Source of the DNA: a virus
IMG/VR virus record: IMGVR_UViG_3300045988_110030
Location: 90,200 to 154,199 of that record
Length of the DNA stretch: 64,000 bases
Direction: 5' to 3' (one strand)
Every line of letters starts with the position of its first letter. Position 1 is the stretch's first letter. The notes beneath the pieces are model-generated. The model made no database searches. It was given only the letters and a program-made list of their open reading frames with translations, and was not told the origin of the DNA. The position numbers and the translations under genes were made by a program. Shown here piece by piece: positions 1,652-25,230 of this stretch.

Positions 1652-1678
1652 AACAATTATTTTATTTCTCATGAAGCG

Positions 1679-1750
1679 AAGCCGGATTTGAGACTCGTTA
1701 TGCGGATACCGAAGGTTGAAGAACGATATCAAGATAATCCGGCTTTTTTG
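1679..1750 (+). terminator. Terminator-like structure after the lysozyme-domain gene: a 10-bp stem (aagccggatt / aatccggctt) enclosing a 47-nt structured loop, followed by a T6 run.
   Basis: Directly read. AAGCCGGATT at 1679-1688 pairs with AATCCGGCTT at 1736-1745, and TTTTTTG follows. It lies 28 nt after the stop at 1651. Confidence 0.5.
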
Positions 1751-1905
1751 TGCGATTTCGTGAAGGATGGAACTATCATCGCCTTGGTTTAACAGAACAG
1801 ACCTACGTACCTCTACTGTCCTGACGGGCATGGACGCCCGTCTCGCCTACCAGCCTGCCTAATTCTCCACTGGCTACCTAATATAACTATTAACGTCACT
1901 CCATC

Positions 1906-2079
1906 ACCTATCTCCCTTCAGTCGATAGGTTCAGTCGTTTTTAAATATTATAAGTTTTTTCGCATCGTTCCCTTCGGTCACGATACTCAATCTTTTAACA
2001 CAATTAGGCAAACAATACAATAGACGAAAAAAGTAATTTGTCAATCCGTTCACTCACTTAACTCCCTTCGGTCGTTAAG
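1906..2079. repeat. Three paralogous stem-loops (1906-1930, 1964-1984, 2057-2079). Each has a different 5-6-bp stem but the same 11-nt loop, TCCCTTC(A/G)GTC.
   Basis: Hairpin 1 is acctat-cTCCCTTCAGTCg-ataggt. Hairpin 2 is atcgt-TCCCTTCGGTC-acgat. Hairpin 3 is cttaac-TCCCTTCGGTC-gttaag. The stems covary while the loop is conserved, and all lie inside a 650-bp non-coding region. Confidence 0.6.
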
Positions 2080-2290
2080 TTCATTCACTGCAAACAATTA
2101 TATGAATAAATGGTAAAGTATATAAAATAATATAAATAATATAATGAGTAAGATCATTAAAAATGGTCTTAATATTAAGGAAAACGGAGACTATTTATAG
2201 GCGTAGTTTTAATTCAAGATTTGTTGTCCCACTCCTGACGGTCAGACGGTTACGTTTCGAGCCGTTCTTTTGTCTCTTATCTAAACCGTC

Positions 2291-2338
2291 ATAAAATAAA
2301 AAACCTTGTATCCTATTTCTCTCAAACCGGATACAAGG
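2291..2338 (-). terminator. Strong intrinsic terminator on the minus strand. A perfect 10-bp stem (ccttgtatcc / ggatacaagg) with a 15-nt loop is followed, on the minus strand, by TTTTTTTATTTTAT.
   Basis: Directly read. The stem spans 2304-2313 and 2329-2338, and the A-run at 2291-2303 on the plus strand equals a T-run on the minus strand. No annotated minus-strand gene lies upstream of it. Confidence 0.5.
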
Positions 2339-3421
2339 CCGTGCATTTTCTTATTTGAACATATGATGAAAAATCATATCTTTGCACTAAAGAACATAAT
2401 TATGGAGACAAAGTTAATCGAAATAATAGATCCTCACAAGTTACACGACGAACTCTTTAAGAAAGAGCAAGTCTCTCCGATAGAAGTTATCTACAATAGT
2501 TTCAGTAATTTAGGGTACAATGTGGTACGCCGCCCAGCTGGTCAATGTTTAGGAAATTTGAGATATTTTAACCTGTTTTACGATAAGAATACTCATCATT
2601 TTTATCAGAAGGATAAGAAGTTGAGATATTTTAGTAATTTTCTGATATCCGATTATTGGAAAGATAGGGTGAGGTGTTTTATAGTTTGGAATTTTGGTTT
2701 TGGGAGATTCTTCCCGTACAATGACTTCATAGAGGCTATGGTCTATGACTATCTCCGATATGGGAGGAAGTCAGTTCCTTATCTTAAGAGTGTGCAAGAA
2801 GCTGAAGAAAAGTGTGTAAGGTTCTACATTAGATCTCAAATAGATATGCTTCGTAAGGAAGGATATGCTGCATACCGGGCTAAGTTCAAGGAAGAATGTC
2901 CTCAGTATTTTATCGGAGACGATAGGACGGTGTTCAGATGTCTTGACAGCTCTTTAAAAAGAGAAGAGAAGATTGCCGCATGCGTAGCTCACAAAAGAGC
3001 TTTAAAAGAGGTGGTTATAACTTCTTTTATTAACCATCTCAAGAAACATCCTACCACCTTGTATTCCTGGTTTTCATCAGAGGTAGACAGCGAAGGGAAG
3101 AACAGGCTTTGTTTATCTGATAAGGCTGTTTCTTATTTAAACAAAAGATTGGTTCGCAATGGGTTAAAGGTTCTTTCAGCATCATATCTTTTTAGACTAT
3201 TTAGGAAAATGGTCAAGAATTTGTTTGGCTCCAATGTTAGGTCGTTCTTGAATGGCTGTCTTATGTCTGTTTCAACAGAAGAGGTTTTAACCAAGTCTAT
3301 AAAGAAAATAGTTTCCAAGACGGTATTGTTTTTATACAAGAGAGTACTCAAGGCTTATCGCAGGGCATACGGACTCAAGTACGATCCCGATTCAGGAGGT
3401 TTGTCCGCTATACATACCTGA
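2306..3421 (+). CDS. Hypothetical protein. The true start is possibly an internal Met (MMKNH… at ~2363), because the first codons overlap the hairpin at 2304-2338.
   Basis: A 371-aa uninterrupted ORF in an AT-rich genome. No recognisable domain. The basic, aromatic-rich composition could partly be AT bias. Confidence 0.45.
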   Translation: MYPISLKPDTRPCIFLFEHMMKNHIFALKNIIMETKLIEIIDPHKLHDELFKKEQVSPIEVIYNSFSNLGYNVVRRPAGQCLGNLRYFNLFYDKNTHHFYQKDKKLRYFSNFLISDYWKDRVRCFIVWNFGFGRFFPYNDFIEAMVYDYLRYGRKSVPYLKSVQEAEEKCVRFYIRSQIDMLRKEGYAAYRAKFKEECPQYFIGDDRTVFRCLDSSLKREEKIAACVAHKRALKEVVITSFINHLKKHPTTLYSWFSSEVDSEGKNRLCLSDKAVSYLNKRLVRNGLKVLSASYLFRLFRKMVKNLFGSNVRSFLNGCLMSVSTEEVLTKSIKKIVSKTVLFLYKRVLKAYRRAYGLKYDPDSGGLSAIHT

Positions 3422-9300: not shown

Positions 9301-9387
9301 ATGAGAGGGATGGATATTACGCCCAACAATAACGATAAGTTTAGTAAGTTGAACGATTTTTTGCAAAAGCTTTATGGCAACAGATAG
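6322..9387 (+). CDS. Giant virion/ejection-type protein (1021 aa) with a GTG start.
   Basis: An AGGAGG Shine-Dalgarno-like sequence precedes the GTG at 6322. The 3' end overlaps the next gene by 14 nt. Contains coiled-coil and Gly-rich segments, and a DKDGD pentapeptide (see the rejected items). Confidence 0.7.
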   Translation: MASQYSILRQYAPYVSPYNIDLVKDVMMYKQQKVDAAREKIYTQVDYLMGQEIDKPEARAYMEDKMSGVIANINQKFKGVDLSSDGVTRAIQGEISSVLDDTVINAIAGTKEGKRVMKEIESIKQNHPELYSPINEWHALDPYYKWRSDGKAGSRLGGLHYSPYIDYTKEINKLVSDFRENNKGRKIQTTEYDVEGKPTGGIIEVNVDELTDSQIRNFVSANLSENMRNQMRIEASYMAATNPVFSNPDLVSQYIGSYVERYDRHIGALEAKKKSVGDNKDIIDRIDSQIQEAKNQKAEAKREADMIIASSDPVAAANFVVTNNLFDKMTDAWRYDNTSFERKKDDLYFARLAEDRAQQKFLTDNAKSMVEISLANEQLAQAKIETEYMRTYGSKMGTESSSGGTRGAGGVGVPMAPMDGPTAINSGTGKIGSVNLANIPYEQLTSSSTERRANLLKLYNSLSPTDRSNIVAASYEEEKTDPGLYANMTPEERVYSYLKNNGGQKNGYFGQGNNRLSEAYDALLVSDSKANGASKAINNITDYQIDNIVTEKNKDIIRKVRDAKFMKGNSFMNLTDTDDKAGAFLLATAITTGVSDAVGFREYMMNPSRGIDILSAISPSLGAKASAGKLGKNISDAITSDGNSSSTGTLALINGMKKLNGDPDFNISDYMTIDKDGDIDLKDYQEGEPLTITQLRYAEKNSRVSDMIAGQMQDEIKMSVSPDQISDKLSQYHYLDSYKRYNWNADSPEKSLQKAQFRRLSGYMAGKVNNLDPTAINTINMDAEIDNGTVRRFLTAQVGSGRDSYVTERVEITNDELLKAGIDPSVEERNYPVDGYKSSFGTCDFVDTGKKEGYSYDKYLIRNGLPRLASKADVKNDLYDIVKIHGSYLKPEEMNVVKTLVDNFIDMSDNISVQLEGMDDRGSREVAVNFYDKRTKNSKNPALLFSDFVPLDPGNDEYADYWNNIHQKCPQYFFVKYVKEAVQERLDQMRDPYMRGMDITPNNNDKFSKLNDFLQKLYGNR

Positions 9388-12300
9388 TAATGTAAATAGA
9401 TATAATCCTGCTGCTAAAACCACTTACGAAGATGTGGCAAGGCAAAGGAAATTAGCCGAAGAAGAAAATTACACTCCGGCTACATTACCAGAGACGACAA
9501 CGCCTCTGGTTCCTAATTATATGCCGGGAGAGGGCGTGTATGCCCAACCTAAATTTCCAGATTATGCATCAAGGATAGCTGCTGCCCAGTATGAAGAACC
9601 GTATATAGCCAAGGAGATAAGCAACAGCTACTCAGAGGCACTGGCCCGCAACAGCTACAGGGGGGCTACACCCGCCCCGCCGCCTCTTAATCCCTATGGA
9701 CCAAAGGTAAGTATCCGTGAAAGTCATCAGATGGGTAATGATGGGGTATGGCGCACAAAATATCCCAATTATATCCCAGGTATAAATAATGAGGATTATT
9801 ATGCCAGAAGGCAAAGTGGTTGGAGTAAGTTTTGGAATGGTGTAGGTAAATTTGCCTTAAAGTCTGCATTGTATGGGGCCCAGGGAACTATATCATTACC
9901 CGACAAGCTTATTAATATGGCATCTGAGGGAAGTTATAAGGCAGCTTTGAATACGAACATGGATAAGTTTGTTGGTGATCTTGATCAGCGAATAGACATG
10001 CTTCTTCCACATTATTACAAGAAAGAAGTAGAAGATTACAATTTTGGTCAGAAGCTTTTTAAGGATACTGGTAATTTTTTATGGAATGACGTCCTTGGCA
10101 ACGGAATGTCTTTTACCGTAGGAGCCATGATATCAGCATACATGACCGGAGGACTGGGAGTTGGTTCATTAGGTAACATAGGCGCAAAATTAGGTGGAAG
10201 AGTCGGAGCTAAGCTGGCAGCAAGACAAGCTGCCAATAGAGGTATAGGAAGTCTCAAAAGTGTGTTTAACGACTATGTAAGGAAAGGAGTTGCTACCGGG
10301 AGGAATGTAGGAGAGGCTGCTAAGACCATGACGTTGTTGGCTACCAGTGCCGGCTTTGAGTCATCGGTTGAAGCAAATTCTTTTATGAAACAATCCGAAT
10401 CCGACTTCAAGGATTATTATCGTAAAATTTATGGTCGTGATCCTAATGCTGAGGAAATGGCTGTTTTTCGTAATTCTAATGCTGATGTAGGTAGTGCGAT
10501 ATTTGCAGCTAATATGGGTATAGTAGGATTGTCCAACTGGCTCTTGTTTGGTAAATACATAGGATTAGGAGGAAAGGCTATACCAGGACTGGAAAAGAAA
10601 CTTAATAAGCATCTATTTGGATTAGGGACGGAAGTTACAAAGCCAGGAGAGATGGCTATTAAGATAACCAACCCTAACATAGGGCAGAAGATAGCTGGTA
10701 ATGTTTTCAATATCATGAAAAGACCAGTGTCCGAAGGTTTATGGGAAGAAGGGTCTCAAGGTGCTGTCCAGAACACGGCTGAAGAATATGTTAAGTCAAG
10801 ATATGACAATGTGGCTATGAATGGAGCCGTCGATGTTCTTGATGCTATTTCTGACGGATTTAAAAAACAATATACGTCTAAAGAAGGATGGACTGAAATA
10901 GGAATAGGTGCTATTATCGGTTCTTTGTTCGGCATGAGAGAAGGCTTCTTTGGGGTAAAAGAGTATAGTAATAGTCAGATATTACTAGAGAGGCAGGTGG
11001 ATGAATACAACAAAGCATCTTCTAATCTTAATACGGCGGCTTTGAATACGTTGAAGAAGTCAATGAGTTTAGGTCCGCAAGTTCGTTCCGATGCTCAGTC
11101 TATGACCGGCAAGGAGCTTGATGATGCTATGTTTGAAAAGATGTCTATTGACAACCAAATGGGAACCTTAGAGGATTCGGCTGAGAATTTCAGGCAGATG
11201 GTTGATATGATGCCTATTTCAGAAATAGCTGAAGCTAATGGGATGTCTTTAGAAGAGGCAAAGAAATACAAGGACTCTATTATTGATAATTATAATAATC
11301 GTCTTTCTGATTTCAGATCTGCTCAGAGTTTTGCTGAAGATCTTATAGGTGATGACTCTAAGATTGAATTTAGGAAATACGTGGCTCGTAATGCCTTCCT
11401 TGGTCTTCAATCAGAATCAAGGATGAAAGACATAGCTTCTGTCATAGAAACGCTTTCAGGACAGCCTCGCGTGGCAGATGCGCTAAGTACGTTCTCCCGG
11501 CTGTCGGACAGAGCGAGGGAGCGGGCGATGGCTATCCGTGGCATACGATCAAGAATAGAAGAACTTGAATCCGAAATAGAAGATCTTGCCACCCGTCCTC
11601 GTAACGTAGATGGAAAAGACCCACAAGCTGAATCTATACAACGAAAAACCAAAGAATTGGAAGATCTTAGAACCAATTACAATAATTCGTTGTCTGAGTT
11701 ATCAACGTTAATAGGAAAAGAGTTTTCGATAGAAGAGTTGGTAAGTAAAACCGAATCTGTTTTATCATCACCTCTTTCTCCCATAAGTTCACAAGATGTA
11801 ATAGAAGCCTATGATGCTCTTGTGGCTTTTGATGATTATTTTAATGTAAAATCAAGACAGGAAAAGAAGTTTACGGCCAAAGACAAAGCCATGAGATCCT
11901 TGGTAAATGAATACCGTAGGAGTTTGATGGACTATAGGAATATGAATAATTTCTTGTCTAAGATGCTTGATAAAAGATTCTTAGATGAGGAAAACAGGGG
12001 ATTTTCAAAAGCGCTGTCTTCTCTATGGTCTACTCCTTATAAGGAGGATGACAAGGTTCCTGATTTTGCAGAGCCTAATAAAGTCGGTGAATATGATACT
12101 GATGAGGTAGTAGATCAAGCTGTGTCAGAAGGTAAGATTTCGGAAGACGAAGCTTGGACTATCAAAGCATTTATGCATGCTCTTGATAAAGTAAGAGAAG
12201 ATAGGATGAAGGAAGCGGAAGATAATATAAAAGAGTCATCGCTTACGGAGTCTGTATCAGATGAAGATTATGAGGCTGCTATGGATAATCCTATTATGGT

Positions 12301-15300
12301 TCCGGTAGTAAGGCAGTCTATAATTGATAAATTATATACAGGGAATGCTGATCTTCTTACTGCGAGAGAAAAAGATGTGTATGATAAATACAAACAAGAT
12401 TTTGATGATCATGTGTCGTCTTTAGGTGACAGTCCTATTAATCTCATAAAATCATTATCTGAAAAGGCTGACAGACTTACAAGTCCGAGATCAGTATATG
12501 AGGAAAATAAAGCTATTATTGACATGGCTAAATCCAATTTAGAACCAGATCAAAGGCAGGAGCTTGATGATGCTATTTCTTCGTATGTGGATATAATGAA
12601 CAGACGGGACAAAGGGGAGAAAGTTGACGAAGATAAGCTTGCCGATTCGGTATTTACCATAGAAGATCTTGGCCAGGTTGGAAACATCACGGATCTCCTT
12701 CCTTATATCGAACAAAACAGGATTATTGACAAAGGTCGTATCTCTGAATCTACGTTGAGTAATTTTGGGGAAGATGATGTTAATATAGATTCTCTTGTAA
12801 ATGAATTAGACGAATCCGATAATACGCCGGGGGTCAACATAGATAGTGCTCAGAATCCAGAGACGTTGATGGTAAGAAAAATATCCAACGATGGCAATGA
12901 AAGGTATGAAATTGCGGGTCTTAGAGCCGATAAATTTATATCTTCAATAAAATCATTGGTTCCTATTCAAATAAGTTCTGAAACGAACGCTAATGGCACT
13001 AAAAGGTATTCCCTTAACATAGGTGGAGAAACAGCTACTATAATGGAACTGCCTTATCATGCAAGATGGTCTATAGACAAAGAATCGGCTCGTGTTCTTA
13101 ACCGTTACACAGATGTGTCTATCCAGGACGTGGGTAATTCATATTCTTTGGTTTATAAGCGTCTTGATTCAGATGAGTTGGTTCCGTACAGAACAGGTGT
13201 TGGATTCGGGGAGAATGAAGTAGATAAAATAGACCAAGAAGCATTATCTTCTTTGAAAAAAGGAGATAAGGTTAATCTTGAGATAGATGTCAATGATACT
13301 TATAATCAGTCTCTTTTTACTGAATATGATAATGCTGTTCAATCCGGCGATAGAAATAAAATAGAATCTGCCGAGAATAAGTTGGTATCCAATATGGTTA
13401 TCAAGGTCATGAGTGGAAACAGATTCGTTTCTGTTGTAAAAGCTGACACAGGAGGCATAGATGGTATAAGTAAAATAAGAAGAACGGCTTTCAACAAGTG
13501 GAAGAAGGATGCCGGCCGGTCGGCTACCATCGGCGTCGGCACGCATGTTGTTGCCCAGACCCTTCCCGGAAGACCGGTGTTTAACATGAAGGTGAACGGT
13601 CAAGGATATGGCCAGGTAGAAAATCTCCCCATTACCGAAAAAGGTGCTGAAAAAGTATCTGATGTCGGATATGTATTAAATGGCAAAGTCGTGCTTAAGA
13701 ACGGATCTAAATACACAGGCTTCCCATTTGCTTATTCTATATTAAATGACAAGGGGAATAATTACAAAAATGTAAGAGTTCCGATAGTTGTCATCAAAGG
13801 TAAAAACGGTCTTAATTATCTTTTCCCAGTTAGCCTGCGTTCTGTAGAATCAGAGGAAGGGCAGAAATGGATGTCTTTTATAGATATGCTGCTTGAATCC
13901 GGTGATTCTGAATTGCTACAGATGGGTCAAGATGATATACAAGATCTTAATGCGTATCTAACCAAGTTAGGTCTTGATCCAGCTTCGTATCAAGTATCGT
14001 ATTTGAATCCTATTTCAGGGCTTAGAAAAGCTCGTGAGGCTATAGAAAAATTATCTACGGTTCCTGATGTTGTTAAGTGGGTAGAAGATGAGAATAGGAG
14101 TGTGAAAGACATTGTGACGTCTGAAGTAGAATCTGGAATAGATTTCGAAGGTGAGATGTTTGTTGCTCCTAAGATCAGGATCCAGTTTGGTAAATCATCT
14201 TCCAGCCCTAAATCGCTTATAGAGGATGATCTTCCTTTCTCTGATGAGGGTAAGACCGTTACTTCTAAAGAAGATGTGGATGTTTATGAAGAGGAAATGC
14301 CAGAGGAAGGAGCTGTCCGGGGGACTCAGACGGCGCCATTGGCTCAGCCGGCTCCTGCGGCACAAGATGCGCAGTCTTTACCTGGCAAGAAGCGTACCTC
14401 CAGGAAAAACTTCTCTCTTATGTTAAACGAAATAGAATCTCATATAGAAAAAGAGGGATTGCCGCCTTATGCTAATATTTTTGATTTTATAGCAAGGAAG
14501 ATTGTAGGAGGCGACTTAAGGTTTCTTCGTGAGAGAGGTAATCCTAAAAGTCTTAAGGAGGAAATGGGATTAGAACCTAAAGGAACAGTAGGTGATAAGA
14601 TATCCACTCCTTCCAAGAAAGGTGGTAAGACCTTAGATGAATATGTTTCTTGGCTTCGTTCTCAAACAGATCAGGTGGTGGTTGATTATGTTGGGCCAAG
14701 ATCTGACGAACAAATTATATCAGAGTTGAAAAACTTTTTGAAATATATTAATTTTGTTCCAAGCAAGGCTTTGAATTATTCTCTTAGAGTCAATGGCATG
14801 GATACCCTAAAAGAATATGGCACGAAAGAGGAGGTAGAAAAAATGGAATCTGACGTCAATAGTTTGGTTTCTAAAGTTTTACCTACGGTGGATAATCAAA
14901 CTGTAGAAGATGTTTCTACTGCAATAAAATCAAACAACTTGCCCGCCATATGGGGGCCCGTGGAAAGCCTTGATATGACAAACGAGGAAAAAATAGAGTT
15001 TTTGAATAACGTAGCAGATTTCCTTAGCGGCATTCCAGAGTATGATGCTGTTGTGGAGTCTATAGAGTCAGAATCAGATAATATTTTAAATAATGGAAAA
15101 GAAGGAAGTGCAGAAGGCGGTGCAGTACGCACTGAGGAAGATGGCGATAAAAAGGGAGATGGAGAAGGCAAAGGACAATCCAGAACAAATGTCGAAGTTA
15201 AAGGAAATGTCGAATTACCTGGATCTCAAGAAGGAAGAGTAGATAACTATAGGAAGAACGGAGATAAGTTTTCTGACATTTCTGAAGTTACCTTATGGTT

Positions 15301-16018
15301 ACTTAGAAGGGCTGCCGGCATAACCTCTATCTCGGAAGGAGAAGAGGTTTATGTAGAGGGAGATGAGGTTAATAGCATTATGACCGATATGGAATCAAGG
15401 TACGGGATAGACACCATCAACCACTCGCATACGACTAAGGCTATAAGGGATCTTAACGGCGTATCAGGTTATAAAGTAGAATACGGCTTAACCTTTTTAA
15501 CATACGATCCTTTTATTAGGATATCCAATCCAAGGAAAGAATCTAAGACTGCAAAAGATGAACCTCGTATATCCGAAGAGCCGCTTGCTCACATATCAAG
15601 GGTGACAACCCCTTATTTCCTGTACGGCGGTGATGAAGCATATACATCTGTTCCGGCTAAGGTAGAACCTATACCAGAGAAGATAATGGGTCGTAATGGC
15701 ATTAAATTTGGTATGAGCGTAGTCGAGCTGACCAAATTAGGGTACAAAAAAGCCGGTGGAAACTGGATATACAAATTCTACATGAACTCAGGTGTTTATG
15801 ATTTGTATAATATCGGTACCGGCGAAGCGTTTAGAGCAAAACCGGATCTTGGAGTTAAGATAAGTTCCAGTGCATTCATCCGTTCTTTATCTCAATCTGG
15901 TAGAAAAATACAAAATATGATGAGTAACATGAGCCAGGAAGAGATAGATAGGAATAAGAATCTTGTAGAAGGTTCTGATAATTCGGATTCAAATAGCGAG
16001 CTGAATAAAGATTGTTGA
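9374..16018 (+). CDS. Giant virion internal/ejection protein (2214 aa).
   Basis: A 6.6-kb uninterrupted ORF. The N-terminal region has glycine-zipper-like hydrophobic segments (…GGLGVGSLGNIGAKLGGRVGAKLAARQAANRGIG…), which are typical of phage ejection and tape-measure-like proteins. Coiled coils and an acidic, low-complexity C-terminus are also present. This size class is characteristic of podovirus cargo/ejection proteins such as N4 and crAss-like phages. Confidence 0.7.
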   Translation: MATDSNVNRYNPAAKTTYEDVARQRKLAEEENYTPATLPETTTPLVPNYMPGEGVYAQPKFPDYASRIAAAQYEEPYIAKEISNSYSEALARNSYRGATPAPPPLNPYGPKVSIRESHQMGNDGVWRTKYPNYIPGINNEDYYARRQSGWSKFWNGVGKFALKSALYGAQGTISLPDKLINMASEGSYKAALNTNMDKFVGDLDQRIDMLLPHYYKKEVEDYNFGQKLFKDTGNFLWNDVLGNGMSFTVGAMISAYMTGGLGVGSLGNIGAKLGGRVGAKLAARQAANRGIGSLKSVFNDYVRKGVATGRNVGEAAKTMTLLATSAGFESSVEANSFMKQSESDFKDYYRKIYGRDPNAEEMAVFRNSNADVGSAIFAANMGIVGLSNWLLFGKYIGLGGKAIPGLEKKLNKHLFGLGTEVTKPGEMAIKITNPNIGQKIAGNVFNIMKRPVSEGLWEEGSQGAVQNTAEEYVKSRYDNVAMNGAVDVLDAISDGFKKQYTSKEGWTEIGIGAIIGSLFGMREGFFGVKEYSNSQILLERQVDEYNKASSNLNTAALNTLKKSMSLGPQVRSDAQSMTGKELDDAMFEKMSIDNQMGTLEDSAENFRQMVDMMPISEIAEANGMSLEEAKKYKDSIIDNYNNRLSDFRSAQSFAEDLIGDDSKIEFRKYVARNAFLGLQSESRMKDIASVIETLSGQPRVADALSTFSRLSDRARERAMAIRGIRSRIEELESEIEDLATRPRNVDGKDPQAESIQRKTKELEDLRTNYNNSLSELSTLIGKEFSIEELVSKTESVLSSPLSPISSQDVIEAYDALVAFDDYFNVKSRQEKKFTAKDKAMRSLVNEYRRSLMDYRNMNNFLSKMLDKRFLDEENRGFSKALSSLWSTPYKEDDKVPDFAEPNKVGEYDTDEVVDQAVSEGKISEDEAWTIKAFMHALDKVREDRMKEAEDNIKESSLTESVSDEDYEAAMDNPIMVPVVRQSIIDKLYTGNADLLTAREKDVYDKYKQDFDDHVSSLGDSPINLIKSLSEKADRLTSPRSVYEENKAIIDMAKSNLEPDQRQELDDAISSYVDIMNRRDKGEKVDEDKLADSVFTIEDLGQVGNITDLLPYIEQNRIIDKGRISESTLSNFGEDDVNIDSLVNELDESDNTPGVNIDSAQNPETLMVRKISNDGNERYEIAGLRADKFISSIKSLVPIQISSETNANGTKRYSLNIGGETATIMELPYHARWSIDKESARVLNRYTDVSIQDVGNSYSLVYKRLDSDELVPYRTGVGFGENEVDKIDQEALSSLKKGDKVNLEIDVNDTYNQSLFTEYDNAVQSGDRNKIESAENKLVSNMVIKVMSGNRFVSVVKADTGGIDGISKIRRTAFNKWKKDAGRSATIGVGTHVVAQTLPGRPVFNMKVNGQGYGQVENLPITEKGAEKVSDVGYVLNGKVVLKNGSKYTGFPFAYSILNDKGNNYKNVRVPIVVIKGKNGLNYLFPVSLRSVESEEGQKWMSFIDMLLESGDSELLQMGQDDIQDLNAYLTKLGLDPASYQVSYLNPISGLRKAREAIEKLSTVPDVVKWVEDENRSVKDIVTSEVESGIDFEGEMFVAPKIRIQFGKSSSSPKSLIEDDLPFSDEGKTVTSKEDVDVYEEEMPEEGAVRGTQTAPLAQPAPAAQDAQSLPGKKRTSRKNFSLMLNEIESHIEKEGLPPYANIFDFIARKIVGGDLRFLRERGNPKSLKEEMGLEPKGTVGDKISTPSKKGGKTLDEYVSWLRSQTDQVVVDYVGPRSDEQIISELKNFLKYINFVPSKALNYSLRVNGMDTLKEYGTKEEVEKMESDVNSLVSKVLPTVDNQTVEDVSTAIKSNNLPAIWGPVESLDMTNEEKIEFLNNVADFLSGIPEYDAVVESIESESDNILNNGKEGSAEGGAVRTEEDGDKKGDGEGKGQSRTNVEVKGNVELPGSQEGRVDNYRKNGDKFSDISEVTLWLLRRAAGITSISEGEEVYVEGDEVNSIMTDMESRYGIDTINHSHTTKAIRDLNGVSGYKVEYGLTFLTYDPFIRISNPRKESKTAKDEPRISEEPLAHISRVTTPYFLYGGDEAYTSVPAKVEPIPEKIMGRNGIKFGMSVVELTKLGYKKAGGNWIYKFYMNSGVYDLYNIGTGEAFRAKPDLGVKISSSAFIRSLSQSGRKIQNMMSNMSQEEIDRNKNLVEGSDNSDSNSELNKDC

Positions 16019-16042: not shown

Positions 16043-18301
16043 ATGGGATTAAAATGTCAGATAGAAAAAAGGAATAATATTGTAGAACGGGTTGAGGCTC
16101 CTAACGGGGAGCCTTCCGTTCTTTACGAAAGTGCCTTAAAATTATTGGGAAATAGCGAGCGGGCTCTTCAGGTATGGGCGAAGGCTTACACTCCTGATTT
16201 TTTATCGTATTACGGTCATTGGAATAACCCTGCCCCTGGGGAGATGTTTAATACAGACTCCAATGGCGAACCTCTTTTGGATGACGTACTGTCGTATATG
16301 AAGCGTCAGACTTATTTTGCTGATCCTTTAACTGCTCAGGATGTTAAGGATGTAAGAGATTTTCTTTTATCTACCGATGGTGTTTATACGGCACCATCAT
16401 TATCCAACATCATTCTTCATTATTTTTATGTAGATGGTAGTTTGATACTGAACGAGCAGAATTTAAGAAGATCAGGCTTGTATAATGAAACAGAGATAAG
16501 TAGAATCTTATCTGATCCTTCTGTTCTTAATGAAGTTTCGACATCCATGAGGAAGCTATTGGATTATTCCAATAACGAACATGATAGGGAAAAAGATAAT
16601 TATTTTATGTCTATTGACTATCAGTATGATCCTATTGTTTACAAGGAGGGAGTGTTTAACCAATTTGGTAAAAAAGTACCATATAATCCTTCTGAGCTTT
16701 ATTGGGCCATGGGCAAAACAGTAGCCGGCATAAAAAACTTTTCTGAATTTTCATCTGCTTTTGAATCGTTGAGAAACTCATACCCTGAACTGGTTGAGAA
16801 ATTCGTTTCTGATAAAGAATTTGCCGAATCTATGTTTGATGAGTTCTCATCTACGAATAAGATTCCGGTAATAAACATAGAAGGGGATGATGTGGTAGAA
16901 GGCAAGAGAAGATCCTTGTCTAAGCTACAAGATCTGTCTTATTACAATCCTGGCAAAATAGAGTTCCTAAGAGCTCGTATATCGGCTTATTTACATAGGG
17001 CTAATGCCGACACCGAATCCGATTTAAGAAGCATGATATGGGATATAGAAGAGGCTTGTACGTGGTTTGGCATAGATATAATAGGGACATCGGAAACTTA
17101 TGATGGCACAGAAGAATCTTTGAATAAGATAGATAATTTGATGCTGGATCTTGATATTTATGTGGCCAGGCATAATGATGTAAATTATGCTCCAACGCTG
17201 GCATCTTCTATAGATGATGTTCTTGGTGATAGCACAGATTATTATTCTGAATTATTGCCGGAGTATATGGATAATTTGAATATCGTTTATTCTGAATCCG
17301 ATATAGACCCAGTAGAGGCATTTGAGAAACATTCATTGCTTAAGGTAGGAGATAATCTATATCAAAGGATCAGCAAAGATGATATTAACGAGATGTATCA
17401 AATATCAACAGTGTTAGCCAAGCACAACCTAACTCATTTTTCTACTAAAATATATCCTGAATCTTGTTTTAAGAACGGCGTTTTGGATAAAGAGAAAGTA
17501 CGGAACGTAGATAATAATACGCTCATGGATTCCATTAAAAAATACGTCAGATCGTTCATGGATTCTCAGAACACGGAGGACATGATAATGACCAGGATGG
17601 CGTTTGGTCACCCGGCGGTACTTGACGTTCCTTACGTGGATGTGGATCGGGAGTATAGTCGATACATGAACAAAAAACAAGATAGCGAAAACCCATTATC
17701 CTTATTCGATTTATACCAATCTTACCTTGACAACAAACTCCATAAAACAAAATTATATGATAATGCCTATAAGTATCTTGACTTCAAACCTGGTCCATCT
17801 TTGGGCCTTATTTCTGATGATCCTGATATTTTGAAATCAATAGAATTATCTTTATCTGGAAAAGACAGGTTGATGTTGTTTGATTATAGCATGACCAGTA
17901 CCGACCCTTCTTTATCAGAATTGTTTTATTTGGAGAAGTATGACCCTTCGTATGCCGGGAATGATTTTGAACACTATTTTTACACCAGGCACCCGTATTT
18001 GTTAAAAGAAAAATCGGGCCCTAATATCGTAGAGCAAGATGGTGTTATAACAGCCGAAGGTATTTATGATAATTTTATAAGAGTAGGTAATAAGATATGG
18101 TCTAAAGTAAGCGAGAGTAGTTCCGGCTCTATCTACCAAAATCTGACAGGAACCGAATCAGAGGTGAAATACGATTCTACTCAGAAGGCTAAGACGGTAG
18201 AAACCGATTACGCTCCATACCAAAACAGATCTGGCTTGACGCAAGACATGACCGTAAGCAAGCCTGAATTGGATGATCTTAATAAATTGGAATGTAGGTA
18301 A
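16043..18301 (+). CDS. Large virion protein (752 aa), the last gene of the giant-protein operon.
   Basis: A long ORF followed by an intrinsic terminator. No recognisable catalytic motif. Confidence 0.65.
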   Translation: MGLKCQIEKRNNIVERVEAPNGEPSVLYESALKLLGNSERALQVWAKAYTPDFLSYYGHWNNPAPGEMFNTDSNGEPLLDDVLSYMKRQTYFADPLTAQDVKDVRDFLLSTDGVYTAPSLSNIILHYFYVDGSLILNEQNLRRSGLYNETEISRILSDPSVLNEVSTSMRKLLDYSNNEHDREKDNYFMSIDYQYDPIVYKEGVFNQFGKKVPYNPSELYWAMGKTVAGIKNFSEFSSAFESLRNSYPELVEKFVSDKEFAESMFDEFSSTNKIPVINIEGDDVVEGKRRSLSKLQDLSYYNPGKIEFLRARISAYLHRANADTESDLRSMIWDIEEACTWFGIDIIGTSETYDGTEESLNKIDNLMLDLDIYVARHNDVNYAPTLASSIDDVLGDSTDYYSELLPEYMDNLNIVYSESDIDPVEAFEKHSLLKVGDNLYQRISKDDINEMYQISTVLAKHNLTHFSTKIYPESCFKNGVLDKEKVRNVDNNTLMDSIKKYVRSFMDSQNTEDMIMTRMAFGHPAVLDVPYVDVDREYSRYMNKKQDSENPLSLFDLYQSYLDNKLHKTKLYDNAYKYLDFKPGPSLGLISDDPDILKSIELSLSGKDRLMLFDYSMTSTDPSLSELFYLEKYDPSYAGNDFEHYFYTRHPYLLKEKSGPNIVEQDGVITAEGIYDNFIRVGNKIWSKVSESSSGSIYQNLTGTESEVKYDSTQKAKTVETDYAPYQNRSGLTQDMTVSKPELDDLNKLECR

Positions 18302-18347
18302 TTTTTGTGTACATATATATAGTTTTTTCATAGTTATAATTTGGGAA

Positions 18348-18376
18348 GTGAGGCTTGTGAAAGTCTCACTTTTCTC
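18348..18376 (+). terminator. Intrinsic terminator. The stem gtgaggc/gtctcac has a ttgtgaaa loop and is followed by TTTTCTC.
   Basis: Directly read. Lies 47 nt after the stop at 18301. Confidence 0.6.
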
Positions 18377-18805
18377 ATATATGCACGTATATCAATAACA
18401 TACAAGAAAAGTTAGATTTTCATTGTTTATGAATTATTTTTATTAAGTTTGCAATATTAGTTTCAGGAAGGGATTATAGAAATAGGAAAAAGTAAGAACC
18501 GGACGTAACTAATAACAGTAGGAAATGAGAATCAGTACCATCAAACGTAATAACAGCATTCATCTTATGTATAAAAACATTATGAATGATTTAGGTCAAT
18601 TAAGAACTGTAGTTTCAAAATCCTATATTTATAATCTGATACAAAATCAAACCGGATTAAGTATCAGAACTATATCCCATGTCTTGAATCATACAAAAGA
18701 ACAGGATACAGATTCTTTGTGAAAGGCATACATTTTCATATATTTGTGTGTTCTTTAGTTTTTAGATTTAAGTTTTTCATGGTATTAGTTTAGATTAGTG
18801 TAGAT

Positions 18806-18831
18806 CAGGGTTCGCAGTGATGCGGGCCCTG
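18806..18831 (+). other. An 11-bp GC-rich hairpin with a GUGA (GNRA) tetraloop (cagggttcgca-gtga-tgcgggccctg) in a 700-bp non-coding gap.
   Basis: Directly read. Followed by GGTTTGATTT, a weak U-tract. Confidence 0.4.
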
Positions 18832-19009
18832 GTTTGATTTAAAAAGTATTAAAATATTTGCTATTTAAAATCCTGTTCCTATCTTTGCTCCAGAAACAAT
18901 GAACAACGAGATCCCACCTCTGGTTGTTTGATGTTGAAAGATATTTTTGGCTCATTAGGGTTTGTCATAGTGGGATCTGACATTCTCTTTTGGGCCTATT
19001 TTTTTTATC

Positions 19010-19894
19010 ATGGATAAAGTTTCTGTTTTTGAAAGTTCGGATTTTGGAGAGCTTAGAATTATTGTAGATCCAAAAGGAGATGTTTGGTTTGTGGCGTCAG
19101 ATGTGGCTAAATCTCTTGGATATATAAATGCTAAAGATGCGGTAAAAAGACATGTAGATGATGATGATTCTATGCTTTTGCAAGTATCTGATAATCAATG
19201 GGGCGTAAAACGATCTATATTGAAAACCAGATATATAGATAGTATAAGAATAATTAATGAATCTGGTTTATATTCTCTTATATTATCTTCAAAATTAGAG
19301 TCTGCTAAGAGATTTAAGAAATGGGTAACATCTGAGGTTCTTCCTTCTATTCGTAAAACAGGAGAATATAAAACAAGTTCCGGTGGAAAGGGAATTTTGG
19401 TCCCTGACTTTTCTAATCCGGCAGATGCAGCAAGAGCCTGGGCTGATCAGTATGAAGCTGCTCAGAGAGCTATAGCCGAAAAGTCGCAGGCAGAGGCAGA
19501 GAAGCAACAAGCTTTGAAAACAATAGAAGAACACAAGCCCGATGTAGAATTTGCCGAGTCTTTTAGGAAAGTAGACCATAACAATATGTGGCTGATTCGT
19601 GATATTGCAAAGAAGTTAGAGCAAAATGGTGTTATTATTGCTGAAAAGAATCTTCGCTCATTCCTTGAAGAAGCTAAATTCATGTTTAGGAACGGTCTTG
19701 GCAAATGGGAGCTATATAGTAATGTTGTAGTTAAAGGGTATGGAGTGTATAGGTCTTATTTCATAGACAAGTATTCTGGTGATAGAATCAATCAACAAAC
19801 CATATACATGACAGGCTCCGGATATGAAGTGACCTTAAATGGTATAAAAGGAAAACTCAAAAATGTGTTTCTAAAATATGGCAAGTTTGCTTAA
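19010..19894 (+). CDS. Bro-N domain / KilA-C-type phage antirepressor-like protein.
   Basis: The N-terminus has the Bro-N signature (…FGELRIIVDPKGDVWFVASDVAKSLGY…ESGLYSLILSSKLESAKRFKKWVTSEVLPSIRKTGEY…). An Ala/Gln/Glu-rich linker follows, then a C-terminal KilA-C-like region. Confidence 0.7.
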   Translation: MDKVSVFESSDFGELRIIVDPKGDVWFVASDVAKSLGYINAKDAVKRHVDDDDSMLLQVSDNQWGVKRSILKTRYIDSIRIINESGLYSLILSSKLESAKRFKKWVTSEVLPSIRKTGEYKTSSGGKGILVPDFSNPADAARAWADQYEAAQRAIAEKSQAEAEKQQALKTIEEHKPDVEFAESFRKVDHNNMWLIRDIAKKLEQNGVIIAEKNLRSFLEEAKFMFRNGLGKWELYSNVVVKGYGVYRSYFIDKYSGDRINQQTIYMTGSGYEVTLNGIKGKLKNVFLKYGKFA

Positions 19895-22929: not shown

Positions 22930-24562
22930 ACCGGTCGGCGGGCAATAGAATACCCGTGGCCGGTTTGTTTCACATAACTTTTTTTGGATATGAATATAGC
23001 ACACGAATCTAAATCGAATAAAACCCCATTGTATTTAATAGGAGAGTTGATTGGCGTACCGAATACGGTTATGGACTCAGCATTGCATGAACTGAAAGAT
23101 AGAATAGACAAAGACCCTAAATGGGTGATTATATACCACTTTACACCAAAAGCGTAAAGTAATACACATTTATACGGAAATTCGTACCGGGTTACACCAA
23201 AACCCTCTACCTTCTGGTAACATCGTTACATCAAAGGATTCTTTTTCCGATTTACGGATGATGTTAAAAGCACCATTGATATCAGCATTAATTGTCTTAC
23301 CAGAAGAGGTTTTAAACAATCCTCGTTTGATCCTTCTTCCTTTGTAGGATTCATGTTTGCAAATCCGTTCATTATCTAAAAAGCTACATTTTGAAGTATA
23401 AGATTCTTCAACGATCTTAACATTAATACCTTCTAATGTAGCTTTATACGATATCATACTGATAAACGAATTAAAAGGAATAGATACAAAGTTCTGATTA
23501 TTACGCTTTCCAATATTGATCTCTTGTTTCCAGTATTTGTTATGACCGATTATGATCGTATTAATACCATTGGAAACTACATGATTAACCAATATTCTAC
23601 TTGCTTTATGCAGATAGTCTTTGATCTTGTTATTCCTTTTGTCGGTTAATGACCTTATTTGTTTTGAAATCTGTTTATTGTCTTTTAACTTAGATTTTAA
23701 GAATGCTAACCTTTTGTTATAATATTGGTTAATAGACTTTAGTGGCCTACCATTGATGATAAAACAAGAACCGGTGTTTGAAACACAAGATGCTAAATTA
23801 TCCAATCCTATGTCGATGCCAAGATAGTTCCCATTATCGGACATAAGATTCTTTTCCTTCTTATTGTAAACTATTTCAAGAACAATATACCCATTCTTAG
23901 GAATGAATCTAAGTTGTTGAATATTTTGCTTGTTAGTTCTTGTTGTAAAGGAAAACTGTTTTGGTAACTTAACAATGCCTTGTTTTATCCATTTTTGAGA
24001 AAAAGCATTTGTTGCAAAAACAGCAGGAAACAAACCACCCTTGTTGAGATACCTTGGCATTCTTACTTCCTCAGAATACTCACCTCTATTCTTTTTATTA
24101 AAGAGATTGAAGAAAGATTTAAAGTTTCTATCAACCATCATCAACACTTGTTGAGCAACCGGTGCTGGTAAAGCACGATAGTCAACATCATTTTCTGTTC
24201 TTAACTTCTTTTCAAGAGAATAGTAGTTTAGGTACTTATACTTTACAGTATTATCATCCTTGTATTGAAAATAATACTGTCTAACAACATATAACCCTTT
24301 ATTGTATAAGTTTTTACACTTATGCAATAGATCATAAAGTTCATTGTAATAAACAGAACTTGGTTTGATCGTATGTTGTTCGACTAATCTCATGACACAA
24401 ATATAGAAATTATTATTTATATATGAAAACAAATTGGCGTATTTGTGGTGTAAAGTTGTATATAATTACCTAAAGATGTTAAAAATTGGCTCGAATCTTT
24501 ACCCAAGATCTGAACCTATTTTTTTTCAATACCGGGCCCGATGCGATTTTAACGTATCGGGT
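22930..24562 (-). mobile_element. IS200/IS605-family tnpB-only (IS1341-like) insertion element. Boundaries are approximate. The tnpB 3'-flanking 150-250 nt (≈22930-23170) would encode the TnpB guide RNA (reRNA/omega-RNA).
   Basis: The tnpB ORF is flanked by GC-rich subterminal hairpins in an AT-rich background. One is 22930-22964 (accggtcggcggg…cccgtggccggt). The other is 24528-24553 (cccgatgcg-attttaa-cgtatcggg followed by TTTTT). There is no TnpA (HuH) ORF. TTCCCG-type short repeats occur at 22880-22915. Confidence 0.55.
23170..24432 (-). CDS. tnpB: TnpB (OrfB) RNA-guided nuclease of the IS200/IS605 family.
   Basis: RuvC-I is YLGIDIGLDNLA. RuvC-II is …TIIIGHNKYWKQEINIGKRNN… with its Glu. 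A zinc finger (CSFLDNERICKHESYKGRRIKRG…) is followed by RuvC-III (INADINGAFNI). The likely true start is the internal MRLVEQ…. Confidence 0.85.
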   Translation of the reverse strand: MFSYINNNFYICVMRLVEQHTIKPSSVYYNELYDLLHKCKNLYNKGLYVVRQYYFQYKDDNTVKYKYLNYYSLEKKLRTENDVDYRALPAPVAQQVLMMVDRNFKSFFNLFNKKNRGEYSEEVRMPRYLNKGGLFPAVFATNAFSQKWIKQGIVKLPKQFSFTTRTNKQNIQQLRFIPKNGYIVLEIVYNKKEKNLMSDNGNYLGIDIGLDNLASCVSNTGSCFIINGRPLKSINQYYNKRLAFLKSKLKDNKQISKQIRSLTDKRNNKIKDYLHKASRILVNHVVSNGINTIIIGHNKYWKQEINIGKRNNQNFVSIPFNSFISMISYKATLEGINVKIVEESYTSKCSFLDNERICKHESYKGRRIKRGLFKTSSGKTINADINGAFNIIRKSEKESFDVTMLPEGRGFWCNPVRISV

Positions 24563-24869: not shown

Positions 24870-25230
24870 CCGTAGAAGAATTAGCTAATAAAAGATACGG
24901 TGGCGAATTTGTTTTCATAATTGTGAATAATACATAACTCATACAAATCATAACCAATTTGTATTGTATTATGTATAATAGCCAAAAGCTATTCCGATTA
25001 TTAGCCTAAGTGTTGAAACAAACACTACGTTATTTAAGAATAGATAGTTACCTACGGATGTTTGCCCAAGTTCGTAGCTCTAAGGTAAGTGATTAAACAA
25101 TGGTTGTATTCGAGCTATAGTGTTGCTTACTAAAAACCTTAAATAACATTGGCGATGGGTACTAACAGAGTTTTACTCTGACTTATGTTGAATAAACATT
25201 AAAAACGTTTGTAGATATGGTGTACGTACA
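24870..25230 (+). ncRNA. Putative IscB omega-RNA (guide plus scaffold). It lies immediately upstream of, and overlaps, the iscB start.
   Basis: A 350-nt ORF-free region with nested GC-containing stems (for example ctacgga…ttcgtag and gttacc…ggtaag). It is located exactly where IscB omega-RNAs are encoded. Boundaries are not determinable by eye. Confidence 0.45.

Follow-up and report, generated by a model that had tools for sequence, protein, structure and literature searches.

A strand-specific array of mini-hairpin boxes in an accessory cassette of Epsilon crAss-like phages, possibly a set of single-strand initiation signals

An extraordinarily stable class of DNA mini-hairpins, GCGNAGC/GCGNNAGC, has been reviewed together with its known biological sites: CCGAAGG lies in the single-strand initiation (ssi) signal ssiA of RSF1010, where the primase RepB' recognizes it, GCGGAGC in the virion-polymerase promoter of phage N4, and GCGAAAGC at the complementary-strand origin of G4 (PMC13037366). 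N4 has three such promoters, in which a GC-rich heptamer is centered on the loop, the flanking inverted repeats are free in sequence, and the template strand is the one that acts (PMC4496689). Here, we analyze a 64,000-nucleotide stretch of viral DNA (positions 90,200 to 154,199 of IMG/VR record IMGVR_UViG_3300045988_110030; hereafter the window, numbered from its first letter, with the given strand as the top or plus strand), in which a gene-free interval carries an array of three related hairpin boxes. The element is real, selected, and strand-specific, and it sits in an undescribed accessory cassette found in Epsilon crAss-like phages. These phages, abundant in the human gut and so far all uncultured, have neither a DNA polymerase gene nor the usual crAss transcription block. 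The array is a concrete candidate for an initiation element or for an RNA-protein pair. It carries the same seven-nucleotide mini-hairpin as the IncQ primase signals and the N4 promoters, tied to a single orphan gene and duplicable within genomes.

The array was recognized through an 11-mer, TCCCTTCRGTC, that occurs exactly three times in the 64 kb (at 1913, 1969, and 2063), always on the plus strand and within ≈160 to 170 nt; the chance expectation in shuffled sequence is 0.03, and none of 100 shuffles reaches three copies. As the first-pass annotation of this DNA had noticed, the copies stand between inverted repeats that are mutually unrelated (ACCTATC/GATAGGT, ATCGT/ACGAT, and CTTAAC/GTTAAG). 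Each 11-mer is part of a longer repeated unit of ≈45 nt (43 nt in our covariance model); the units are 56 and 94 nt apart and 73% alike, and their flanks are conserved, with CGTTC..TC upstream and TCAnTCAC downstream. The number of boxes ranges from two to four among relatives (four units in L113, two in L123). We ran the 43-nt model on the window and on the whole genome of crAssE-Sib (OR575929), a 151-kb Epsilon crAss-like phage of the human gut to which positions 1400-2600 are 93.6% identical, and found only the three copies, the next matches having E > 1. Since the unit is confined to the cassette, it is not a general promoter or terminator of this phage. A pattern scan of IMG/VR for the box returned mostly chance single matches, plus the known loci of a paralogous cassette (cassette B).

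Our comparison set consists of about 130 related sequences, with three aligned lineages: A, to which the window belongs; A', represented by L082 and L090; and B, that of the paralogue. Across these, the 11-mer is not the invariant plus-strand loop it had been taken for. It also occurs as TCCTTTCAGTC, TCCTTCGTC, and TCCCTTCGGTA, all alternates of box 1, as TCCCTTTGGTC, an alternate of box 2, and as TCGCTTCGCTC, TCCCTACGGTC, and TCACTACGTTC. Read on the bottom strand in lineages A, A', and B, it has the form G-A-N3-C4-(G5-N6-A7)-G8-N9-G-A, in which positions 3 and 9 covary (C-G, G-C, A-T) and positions 4 and 8 pair as C-G, U·G, or U-A, with one variant that deletes exactly this pair; on the top strand, 4/8 reads C-G, then C·A, then T-A. 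The core loop is GAA, GUA, or GGA on the bottom strand, and the distant relative L173 has the core GA-C-(GUGA)-G-GA. With 3/9 and 4/8 paired, what had seemed an 11-nt loop turns out to be a mini-hairpin that sits atop a tandem G·A step. Each unit is built of a variable outer stem, this tandem step, and a seven-nucleotide mini-hairpin, N-C-(GNA)-G-N', which in the window is CCGAAGG or CTGAAGG. The heptamer is the only part common to all boxes (CCGAAGG, GCGAAGC, CCGGAGG, CCGTAGG, and ACGTAGT, with C-GTGA-G in L173), and boxes with poor outer stems (fold z about 0) still keep it. Apparent conserved loops can thus be cryptic structure of the opposite strand.

The outer stems change in sequence and keep their pairing; that of box 2, for instance, is ATCGT/ACGAT, ATATC/GATAT, or ATATCG/CGATAT across lineages. 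Over 24 box variants, paralogues and orthologues together, 84% of cells pair, and the covariation score is 0.569, compared with 0.258 when shuffled (reached by 0 of 500) and at most 0.13 for slid partners, figures that are indicative only because the 24 variants are related. Box 3 of lineage A' has a 10-bp outer helix around a noncanonical CGAAUC/GUGAG segment, in register. A wider distribution of the motif, for which the first-pass annotation had recommended a search, was not found in the window or crAssE-Sib, where it occurs only at the cassette, but the box fold is kept, and covaries, in relatives.

All three units of the window are assigned to the minus strand. Unit 1 (1897-1939) has its outer stem at 1906-1912/1924-1930 and its core, GA-CTGAAGG-GA, at 1913-1923; it scores 48.5 bits with the covariance model R1 (E = 9e-9) and folds as RNA at -10.9 kcal/mol on the minus strand versus -7.3 on the plus strand. 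At its inner pair 4/8, the bottom strand has U·G, for which relatives have U-A or C-G. Units 2 (1953-1995; 50.3 bits; -11.8 minus versus -5.0 plus) and 3 (2047-2089; 53.5 bits; -9.8 versus -6.8) share the core GA-CCGAAGG-GA, at 1969-1979 and 2063-2073, respectively. The outer stem of unit 2, at 1962-1968/1980-1986, includes one bottom-strand U·G, and that of unit 3 lies at 2056-2062/2074-2080. All four stem substitutions of box 3 in relatives, three in the outer stem and one at pair 4/8, lead to bottom-strand G·U.

Five tests agree that the bottom strand is the strand that folds. A 601-nt region has a fold z of -4.8 on the bottom and -1.6 on the top strand, and the single boxes, as given above, fold more stably on the bottom. 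For the consensus structure of 13 representatives, the bottom strand gives 61 pairs, 14 of them compensated, and -47.3 kcal/mol, versus 35 pairs and -17.0 on the top. Among non-Watson-Crick states in the stems of the boxes and of a terminator, T1, described below, ≈15 are G·U/T on the bottom strand, one is the opposite, and none is of another kind, not all of these being independent; a state that is G·U/T on the bottom strand is A·C on the top. A pattern scan of the noncoding parts of the window, L082, L084, and L173 found the motif on the bottom strand only, and the boxes all lie on that strand in lineages A, A', and B and in L173. The noncoding regions of L178 and L179 are too diverged for alignment, and the strand signal there is ambiguous. 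Folding with DNA parameters gave no information, the parameter set apparently giving no credit for the special stability of mini-hairpins. That the folded molecule is DNA rather than RNA is something we infer, the two being indistinguishable from sequence.

Beside the boxes lies an AT-rich stretch of ≈125 nt (2090-2215, without strand assignment), in which base counts show no C from 2100 to 2149. Conservation is higher here than anywhere else in the region, at 99 to 100% among ≈74 relatives, and blocks such as AAAATAAYATGAATAAC are common to the window and the paralogue. The stretch at 1790-1900 (assigned to the minus strand) is C-rich and G-poor on the top strand and therefore G-rich on the bottom. 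It holds the conserved blocks CTGTCCTG, CTCGCCTAC, CCTGCC, and CACTGGCTAC, and GC skew within it runs opposite to that of the remaining plus arm. In the paralogous cassette, the C-rich part is an 89-nt tandem repeat of two to four copies (89 nt × 3.2 at 1672-1952 of L095). The repeat unit is unfolded on either strand (z = +0.3 and +1.9), and a folded RNA made of it was rejected.

T1 (2293-2338, minus strand) points leftward, with a stem at 2304-2313/2329-2338 and a bottom-strand U-run, UUUUUUAUUUU, at 2293-2303. It has what characterizes a Rho-independent terminator, namely a stable GC-containing hairpin directly before a U-run on the transcribed strand. The inner helix is made of G·U and U-A pairs and is capped by GAGAG in the window and by GCGA, GAGA, or GUGA (GNRA) in other lineages. 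The element folds at -19.6 kcal/mol on the minus strand (z = -5.2) versus -14.3 on the plus strand, and in L088 at -15.3 versus -5.8. It shows many compensatory changes, its wobble pairs are confined to the bottom strand, and it occurs in all lineages, with the same layout even in the distant L173, L178, and L179. Judged from these features, T1 is a leftward intrinsic terminator. Together with a host-type promoter, it is placed between the array and the gene that follows, which encodes an orphan protein of 339 amino acids. Cassette and gene are co-inherited in every lineage examined, have been duplicated together, and are polymorphic for presence and absence. Since the stretch always travels with this orphan gene, it is an undescribed control cassette and not junk or an intron, and 1652-2401 is best explained as a control region acting in cis and united with the downstream gene in one cassette.

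Our tentative reading, to which we give distinctly less than an even chance, is that the boxes are bottom-strand ssi signals in an origin-like region. On their anatomy, the core heptamers CCGAAGG, GCGAAGC, CCGGAGG, and CCGTAGG belong to the extraordinarily stable DNA mini-hairpin class; since that anatomy matches and the folding strand would be the one copied rightward, we rank a DNA-level reading first. Like the ssi signals of RSF1010 (ssiA and ssiB) and of the G4 type, the boxes form hairpins on one strand specifically and carry at the apex a mini-hairpin of the C-(GNA)-G or GCGNAGC type, CCGAAGG being identical to that of ssiA (PMC13037366), and they adjoin an AT-rich stretch and repeats and are linked to an element-specific protein gene. 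Unlike those signals, they come in three copies on a single strand, with a tandem G·A step in addition; no primase was identified, and a primase fold is absent from the adjacent protein; and they lie in the late arm of a double-stranded DNA (dsDNA) phage with no GC-skew switch. The surroundings appear origin-like in their conserved AT-rich, C-free stretch, their unfolded C-rich repeats of variable number, and their operator-like palindromes.

The proposed mechanism would begin with the opening of the ultraconserved AT-rich DNA beside the boxes, by supercoiling or by an R-loop. Leftward transcription over the C-rich template at 1790-1900 would yield G-rich RNA and hence an R-loop, with T1 gating this transcription. 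In favor of the DNA-level reading, T1 would stop leftward transcripts that arrive from the right, and host-type promoter searches of the bottom strand gave only weak, nonconserved matches and none between T1 and the boxes. The R-loop would displace the bottom strand, which could then fold into the mini-hairpins, where a priming enzyme would start and copy the bottom strand rightward; the adjacent basic protein may be a specific recognition or regulatory factor. We infer the priming and the roles of the protein, the AT-rich stretch, and the R-loop. The scheme resembles transcription-primed origins (ColE1 RNA II with its primosome assembly [pas] sites, T7 phi1.1A/B, and the T4 oriF/oriG R-loops) in that transcription would run into an AT-rich region over a C-rich template that gives G-rich RNA, hairpin signals would lie on the displaced strand, and a terminator or attenuator would gate entry. 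Unlike in those origins, everything here is deduced from the DNA, no leftward promoter was identified, and layout and sequences are without homology.

Several observations weigh against initiation signals. No primase or polymerase was identified; in the adjacent protein, no acidic motif is conserved, and its fold matches neither RepB' nor the archaeo-eukaryotic primases. The boxes all lie on one strand, whereas ssiA and ssiB of RSF1010 lie on opposite strands. G·U pairs, tandem G·A steps, and GNRA caps are no less typical of RNA, T1 indicates leftward transcription within the cassette, and in lineages A' and B the palindromes are imperfect and would not readily extrude from a duplex. The cassette belongs to the late structural arm, its copy B is dispensable, and there is no GC-skew switch at it. 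When cumulated over the whole genome of crAssE-Sib, GC skew is lowest at ≈17 to 18 kb, where the gene arms diverge, and highest at ≈110 kb; these extremes are likely the main origin and terminus, and the skew follows gene orientation throughout.

More broadly, the cassette may be a two-part mobile module of Epsilon crAss-like phages, composed of an orphan predicted nucleic acid-binding protein and a bottom-strand array recognized as single-stranded DNA or as RNA. Such a module could act as a portable initiation (origin or priming) unit or as a phage ribonucleoprotein, with a hairpin code independent of those of N4 and IncQ. We put this forward as a doubtful proposal. The array may present the mini-hairpin initiation-signal theme in a new form or else a new phage RNA-protein pair.

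The main rival, nearly as likely as the DNA-level reading although by itself still improbable, is a leftward noncoding RNA in which the units are protein-binding hairpins followed by a G-rich tail. Its ligand would be the adjacent basic protein, for which the RNA would be a scaffold, sponge, or antidote, or else a host RNA-binding protein. The bottom-strand bias of fold z-scores, consensus structure, and wobbles is what such an RNA predicts, G·U pairs, tandem G·A, and GNRA belong to the classic repertoire of RNA, the box 3 helix of lineage A' encloses its noncanonical segment in register, and the bottom strand is purine-rich, as are the sense strands of this genome. T1 attests leftward transcription signals in the cassette, but it also stands between the only plausible upstream transcription and the boxes, and the bottom strand has no Bacteroidetes-type promoter upstream of the boxes and no terminator at the left end. 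Sigma-70-like -35/-10 pairs do lie upstream of box 3 and box 2 on that strand (TTTATA-18-TATAAT and TTGACA-16-TATTGT, with similar hexamers by eye in lineage B), but promoter-like matches number 8 versus 6.1 in shuffles, no excess. The ≈61 pairs are spread over ≈560 nt, with the AT-rich and G-rich parts unstructured, the universal core is a 2-bp helix with a 3-nt loop that would be unstable as RNA alone, and no Rfam family matches. There is a precedent in phage phi14:2, whose long intergenic regions are among its most highly transcribed early RNAs (bioRxiv 10.1101/2020.03.07.982082). Its early regions at g004-g006 likewise are long gene-free crAss-like stretches that function as nucleic acid, but those RNAs run in gene direction, whereas here the opposite strand is structured, and no kinship in sequence was found. 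Hairpin promoters of the N4 kind, one of the functions proposed in the first-pass annotation, share much with the boxes and are nevertheless unlikely. Extruded mini-hairpins would recruit a single-strand-dependent phage RNA polymerase, and the AT-rich leader and 339-amino acid gene would be transcribed early, with the host-type promoter serving later. As in N4, there are three copies with a GC-rich heptamer, a GNA triloop, a sheared G·A pair, and variable flanking repeats; the bottom strand is the template for rightward transcription and would drive the downstream gene, so that apex, layout, and strand logic all agree. The regulatory region would naturally be duplicated with its gene, AT-rich flanks would help extrusion, and the crAss-like virion polymerase gp66, whose promoters are unknown, transcribes single-stranded and not dsDNA (bioRxiv 10.1101/2020.03.07.982082). 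What is missing is the polymerase: no ORF (open reading frame) of at least 500 amino acids in the window or crAssE-Sib has DxDxD, and no T7-like enzyme was found in a fold search that was not exhaustive. The giant ORFs (9374-16018 and 27714-34130 in the window, and those of the whole of crAssE-Sib) have no DxDxD/DFDxD motif and are virion structural or unknown in PHROGs. The crAssE-Sib paper names one giant ORF a virion RNA polymerase, on weak HHpred evidence (PMC11054128). Yutin et al. (PMC7886860) state that the Epsilon group has no transcription gene block. In N4, the loop center is a fixed purine and there is a -8G, but here the center is A, T, or G; the hairpin has ≈11 steps rather than 5 to 7 bp, with a tandem G·A inside; and the boxes lie in tandem mid-genome in the late arm, 330 to 480 nt upstream of the single gene they would serve. 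N4-type promoters stand before early genes at whichever genome end enters first, and their RNAs begin ≈11 nt from the loop center. T1 and the conserved G-rich part would be unexplained, and the imperfect palindromes of lineages A' and B again disfavor extrusion.

The remaining explanations fare worse. The adjacent protein, as an autoregulator or Rep-like initiator, could bind the boxes in duplex form as iterons or operators, with the inverted repeats incidental. The conserved box flanks, AT-rich neighbor, basic-protein gene, variable copy number, and an invariant CTGA-N3-TCAG palindrome would suit this, but it predicts neither that 3/9, 4/8, and the outer stems change in a compensatory way nor that wobbles have a 15:1 strand bias, and the spacings of 56 and 94 bp are irregular; we consider it quite improbable. 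Lower still is our estimate for top-strand RNA hairpins with an 11-nt UCCCUUCRGUC loop, which in a leader or read-through transcript would serve for loop binding or as small RNAs, the C-rich tract being a possible Rho-loading site. The outer stems of the window's lineage are complementary on the top strand too, the neighboring genes are all on that strand, and its C-rich unstructured part (z = +1.9) resembles a Rho utilization (rut) site; top-strand folds, however, are weaker by 3 to 7 kcal/mol, the common form of box 1 has a C·A mismatch there, the boxes of lineages A' and B barely pair, all but one non-Watson-Crick state is a mismatch, and the supposed loop varies. A degenerate group I intron, a Y RNA for a phage Ro60 homologue, or decayed repeats are together next to negligible. 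Introns are known from crAss-like phages, and crAssE-Sib has a Ro60-related gene ≈4.5 kb upstream, but Rfam is empty for 1500-2500 at E up to 10, no gene is split, the sole YrlA-like match in crAssE-Sib sits by the Ro60-related gene (rsr), and the region is more conserved than the neighboring genes. A type III toxin-antitoxin system such as ToxIN likewise joins a repeat array, a terminator, and a protein gene in an accessory cassette on mobile DNA. Such a system would have contiguous, near-identical direct repeats on the toxin strand and a ToxN/AbiQ-like toxin. Here, by contrast, the repeats are neither contiguous nor identical and fold on the opposite strand, a separate promoter serves the gene, and the protein is without a PADLOC or Pfam match and without catalytic residues that are conserved; the 56/94-nt spacing, 73% likeness, opposite-strand fold, and lack of a PADLOC hit contradict this reading.

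The gene-free interval runs from the end of a tail-lysozyme gene (at 1651; Pfam Phage_lysozyme2) to the ATG of a hypothetical gene at 2402, so that the noncoding part is 1652-2401 (750 bases); its lack of coding capacity had been recognized correctly, but its right end had been put at 2305. An ORF beginning with TTG at 2306 is spurious, the ATG at 2402 being preceded by a Bacteroidetes-type promoter. The longest ORF in the interval has at most 43 codons for amino acids, and all three stop codons occur in six of six frames, so recoding of TAG or TGA rescues none. A small bottom-strand ORF called in L082 and L090 was rejected, as the boxes fall in different frames. The published description of crAssE-Sib is silent on this interval (PMC11054128). 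There is no tRNA or tmRNA in the region and no Rfam family in 1500-2500, either at the gathering threshold or at E up to 10; with that result, and with both flanking genes complete and no split gene around the interval, the suggestion of a group I intron fails. Conservation per column, computed over 80 IMG/VR relatives plus crAssE-Sib, is 97 to 100% in 1680-2230 versus 88 to 93% in the flanking coding and promoter DNA. That the interval is more conserved than its flanking genes and that its stems covary bear out the earlier view of a selected structured element as opposed to decayed repeats. A diversity-generating retroelement (DGR) was considered and dismissed, its variable repeat, template repeat, and reverse transcriptase being located elsewhere.

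The orphan-family gene itself (2402-3421, plus strand) encodes a basic protein (isoelectric point 9.6) that is mostly helical, has no conserved acidic or catalytic motif across its family, and gives weak hints only of sigma-like or helix-turn-helix helical domains. It has no match in Pfam, PHROGs, PADLOC, NCBIfam, or a PDB sequence profile, and tblastn against cultured phages returned only crAssE-Sib and one fecal contig. An HUH protein was rejected because the motif (HAH in lineage B) is not conserved, and a tyrosine recombinase with an attP site because there is no RHRY pattern. Homologues are few: a word search gave 16, and 1.84 billion representatives yielded 22 clusters. Every one lies downstream of a gene-free region, those with 41, 22, and 20% identity following 560, 1095, and 540 nt, respectively.

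A paralogue of ≈61% identity lies ≈35 kb upstream in the same genomes (for example, IMG/VR contig 3300045988_099418). It encodes 350 amino acids and is again preceded by ≈750 nt of gene-free DNA with the same layout. Its context differs, as it follows lysis-like genes a few kilobases upstream of the DGR. This second cassette occurs in some Epsilonunovirus genomes (L084-L089 and L092-L127; for example, at 4241-6085 of L085) and is absent from crAssE-Sib. In L085, ≈1.85 kb stands in place of 40 bp (41637-41676 of the crAssE-Sib sequence L172); this comparison of filled and empty sites revealed neither a target duplication nor terminal repeats, so transposon ends were rejected.

The other elements of the cassette are smaller. 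At its left border, outside the array, lies a plus-strand element at 1679-1751, with arms 1679-1688/1736-1745 (10 of 10 complementary) followed by TTTTTT. The long-range stem seen here at 1679-1750 in the first-pass annotation does belong to a terminator, which is simply the intrinsic terminator of the tail-lysozyme gene and is kept in lineages A and A' only. A GC-rich hairpin reported at 1823-1842 is present (GACGGGC/GCCCGTC), but it is lineage-specific, weakly constrained, and without a strand assignment; it is absent from lineages A' and B, and its variants give mixed strand signals (two minus wobbles, two plus wobbles, and two other mismatches). A small covarying hairpin at 2192-2201, found with RNAalifold and assigned to neither strand, is CTAT/ATAG here, CGAT/ATCG in lineage B, and AAAT/ATTT in lineage A'. 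The conserved block TTGTCCCAC..CTGA-N3-TCAG..GGTTAC (2222-2253, no strand assigned) contains a palindrome at 2235-2245 whose half-sites are invariant across lineages and which looks like an operator. It is followed by a weakly constrained patch (2254-2292, no strand assigned), with conservation of 0.91 to 0.93 versus 0.97 to 1.0 elsewhere in the region, as variable as the flanking coding DNA.

The Bacteroides promoter consensus is TTTG / TAnnTTTG. A promoter of this type precedes the 339-amino acid gene at 2354-2384 on the plus strand, with TTTG at 2354-2357, a 19-nt spacer, and TATCTTTG at 2377-2384, and the arrangement TTTG-N19-TATCTTTG is conserved in all lineages. An inverted repeat in the spacer (2361-2367/2373-2379) differs in sequence per lineage (L082, L084, L088) and keeps its palindromic character; it looks like an operator or like the hairpin of a short leftward RNA ending at T1. 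On the bottom strand, a TAnnTTTG-type -7 box at 2409-2416, with equivalents in L001 and L084 (TAACTTTG, TATTTTTG, TATATTTG), overlaps the first codons or the ATG of the gene. It could drive an antisense RNA of ≈100 nt terminating at T1, or it may be due to chance because the region is AT-rich.

Elsewhere in the window, positions 18301-19010 form a second long stretch (≈700 nt) with no ORF of 80 amino acids or more; its counterpart in crAssE-Sib holds a small repressor-like gene and an antirepressor gene. The array region was also considered as a Y RNA and rejected, with no YrlA or Y_RNA match in 1500-2500. The sole match, a weak one in crAssE-Sib (72601-72705, plus strand, equal to 22601-22705 of L175 and outside the window; E = 0.0055 at 28.5 bits, which falls short of the gathering score), is a candidate Y RNA of the phage and is followed at once by tRNA-Tyr, tRNA-Lys, and rsr, upstream of which it lies. 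Within the window, a HEARO/omega RNA (Rfam RF02033, 103 bits) at 24975-25166 on the plus strand stands directly upstream of an IscB-like ORF of 406 amino acids (RRXRR and HNH domains; 25217-26437, plus strand), the two together making up a predicted RNA-guided nuclease element inside the phage. Just upstream of it, with an 823-nt gap between the ORFs, lies a TnpB gene with OrfB_IS605 and Cas12f1-like TNB domains (23170-24393, minus strand).

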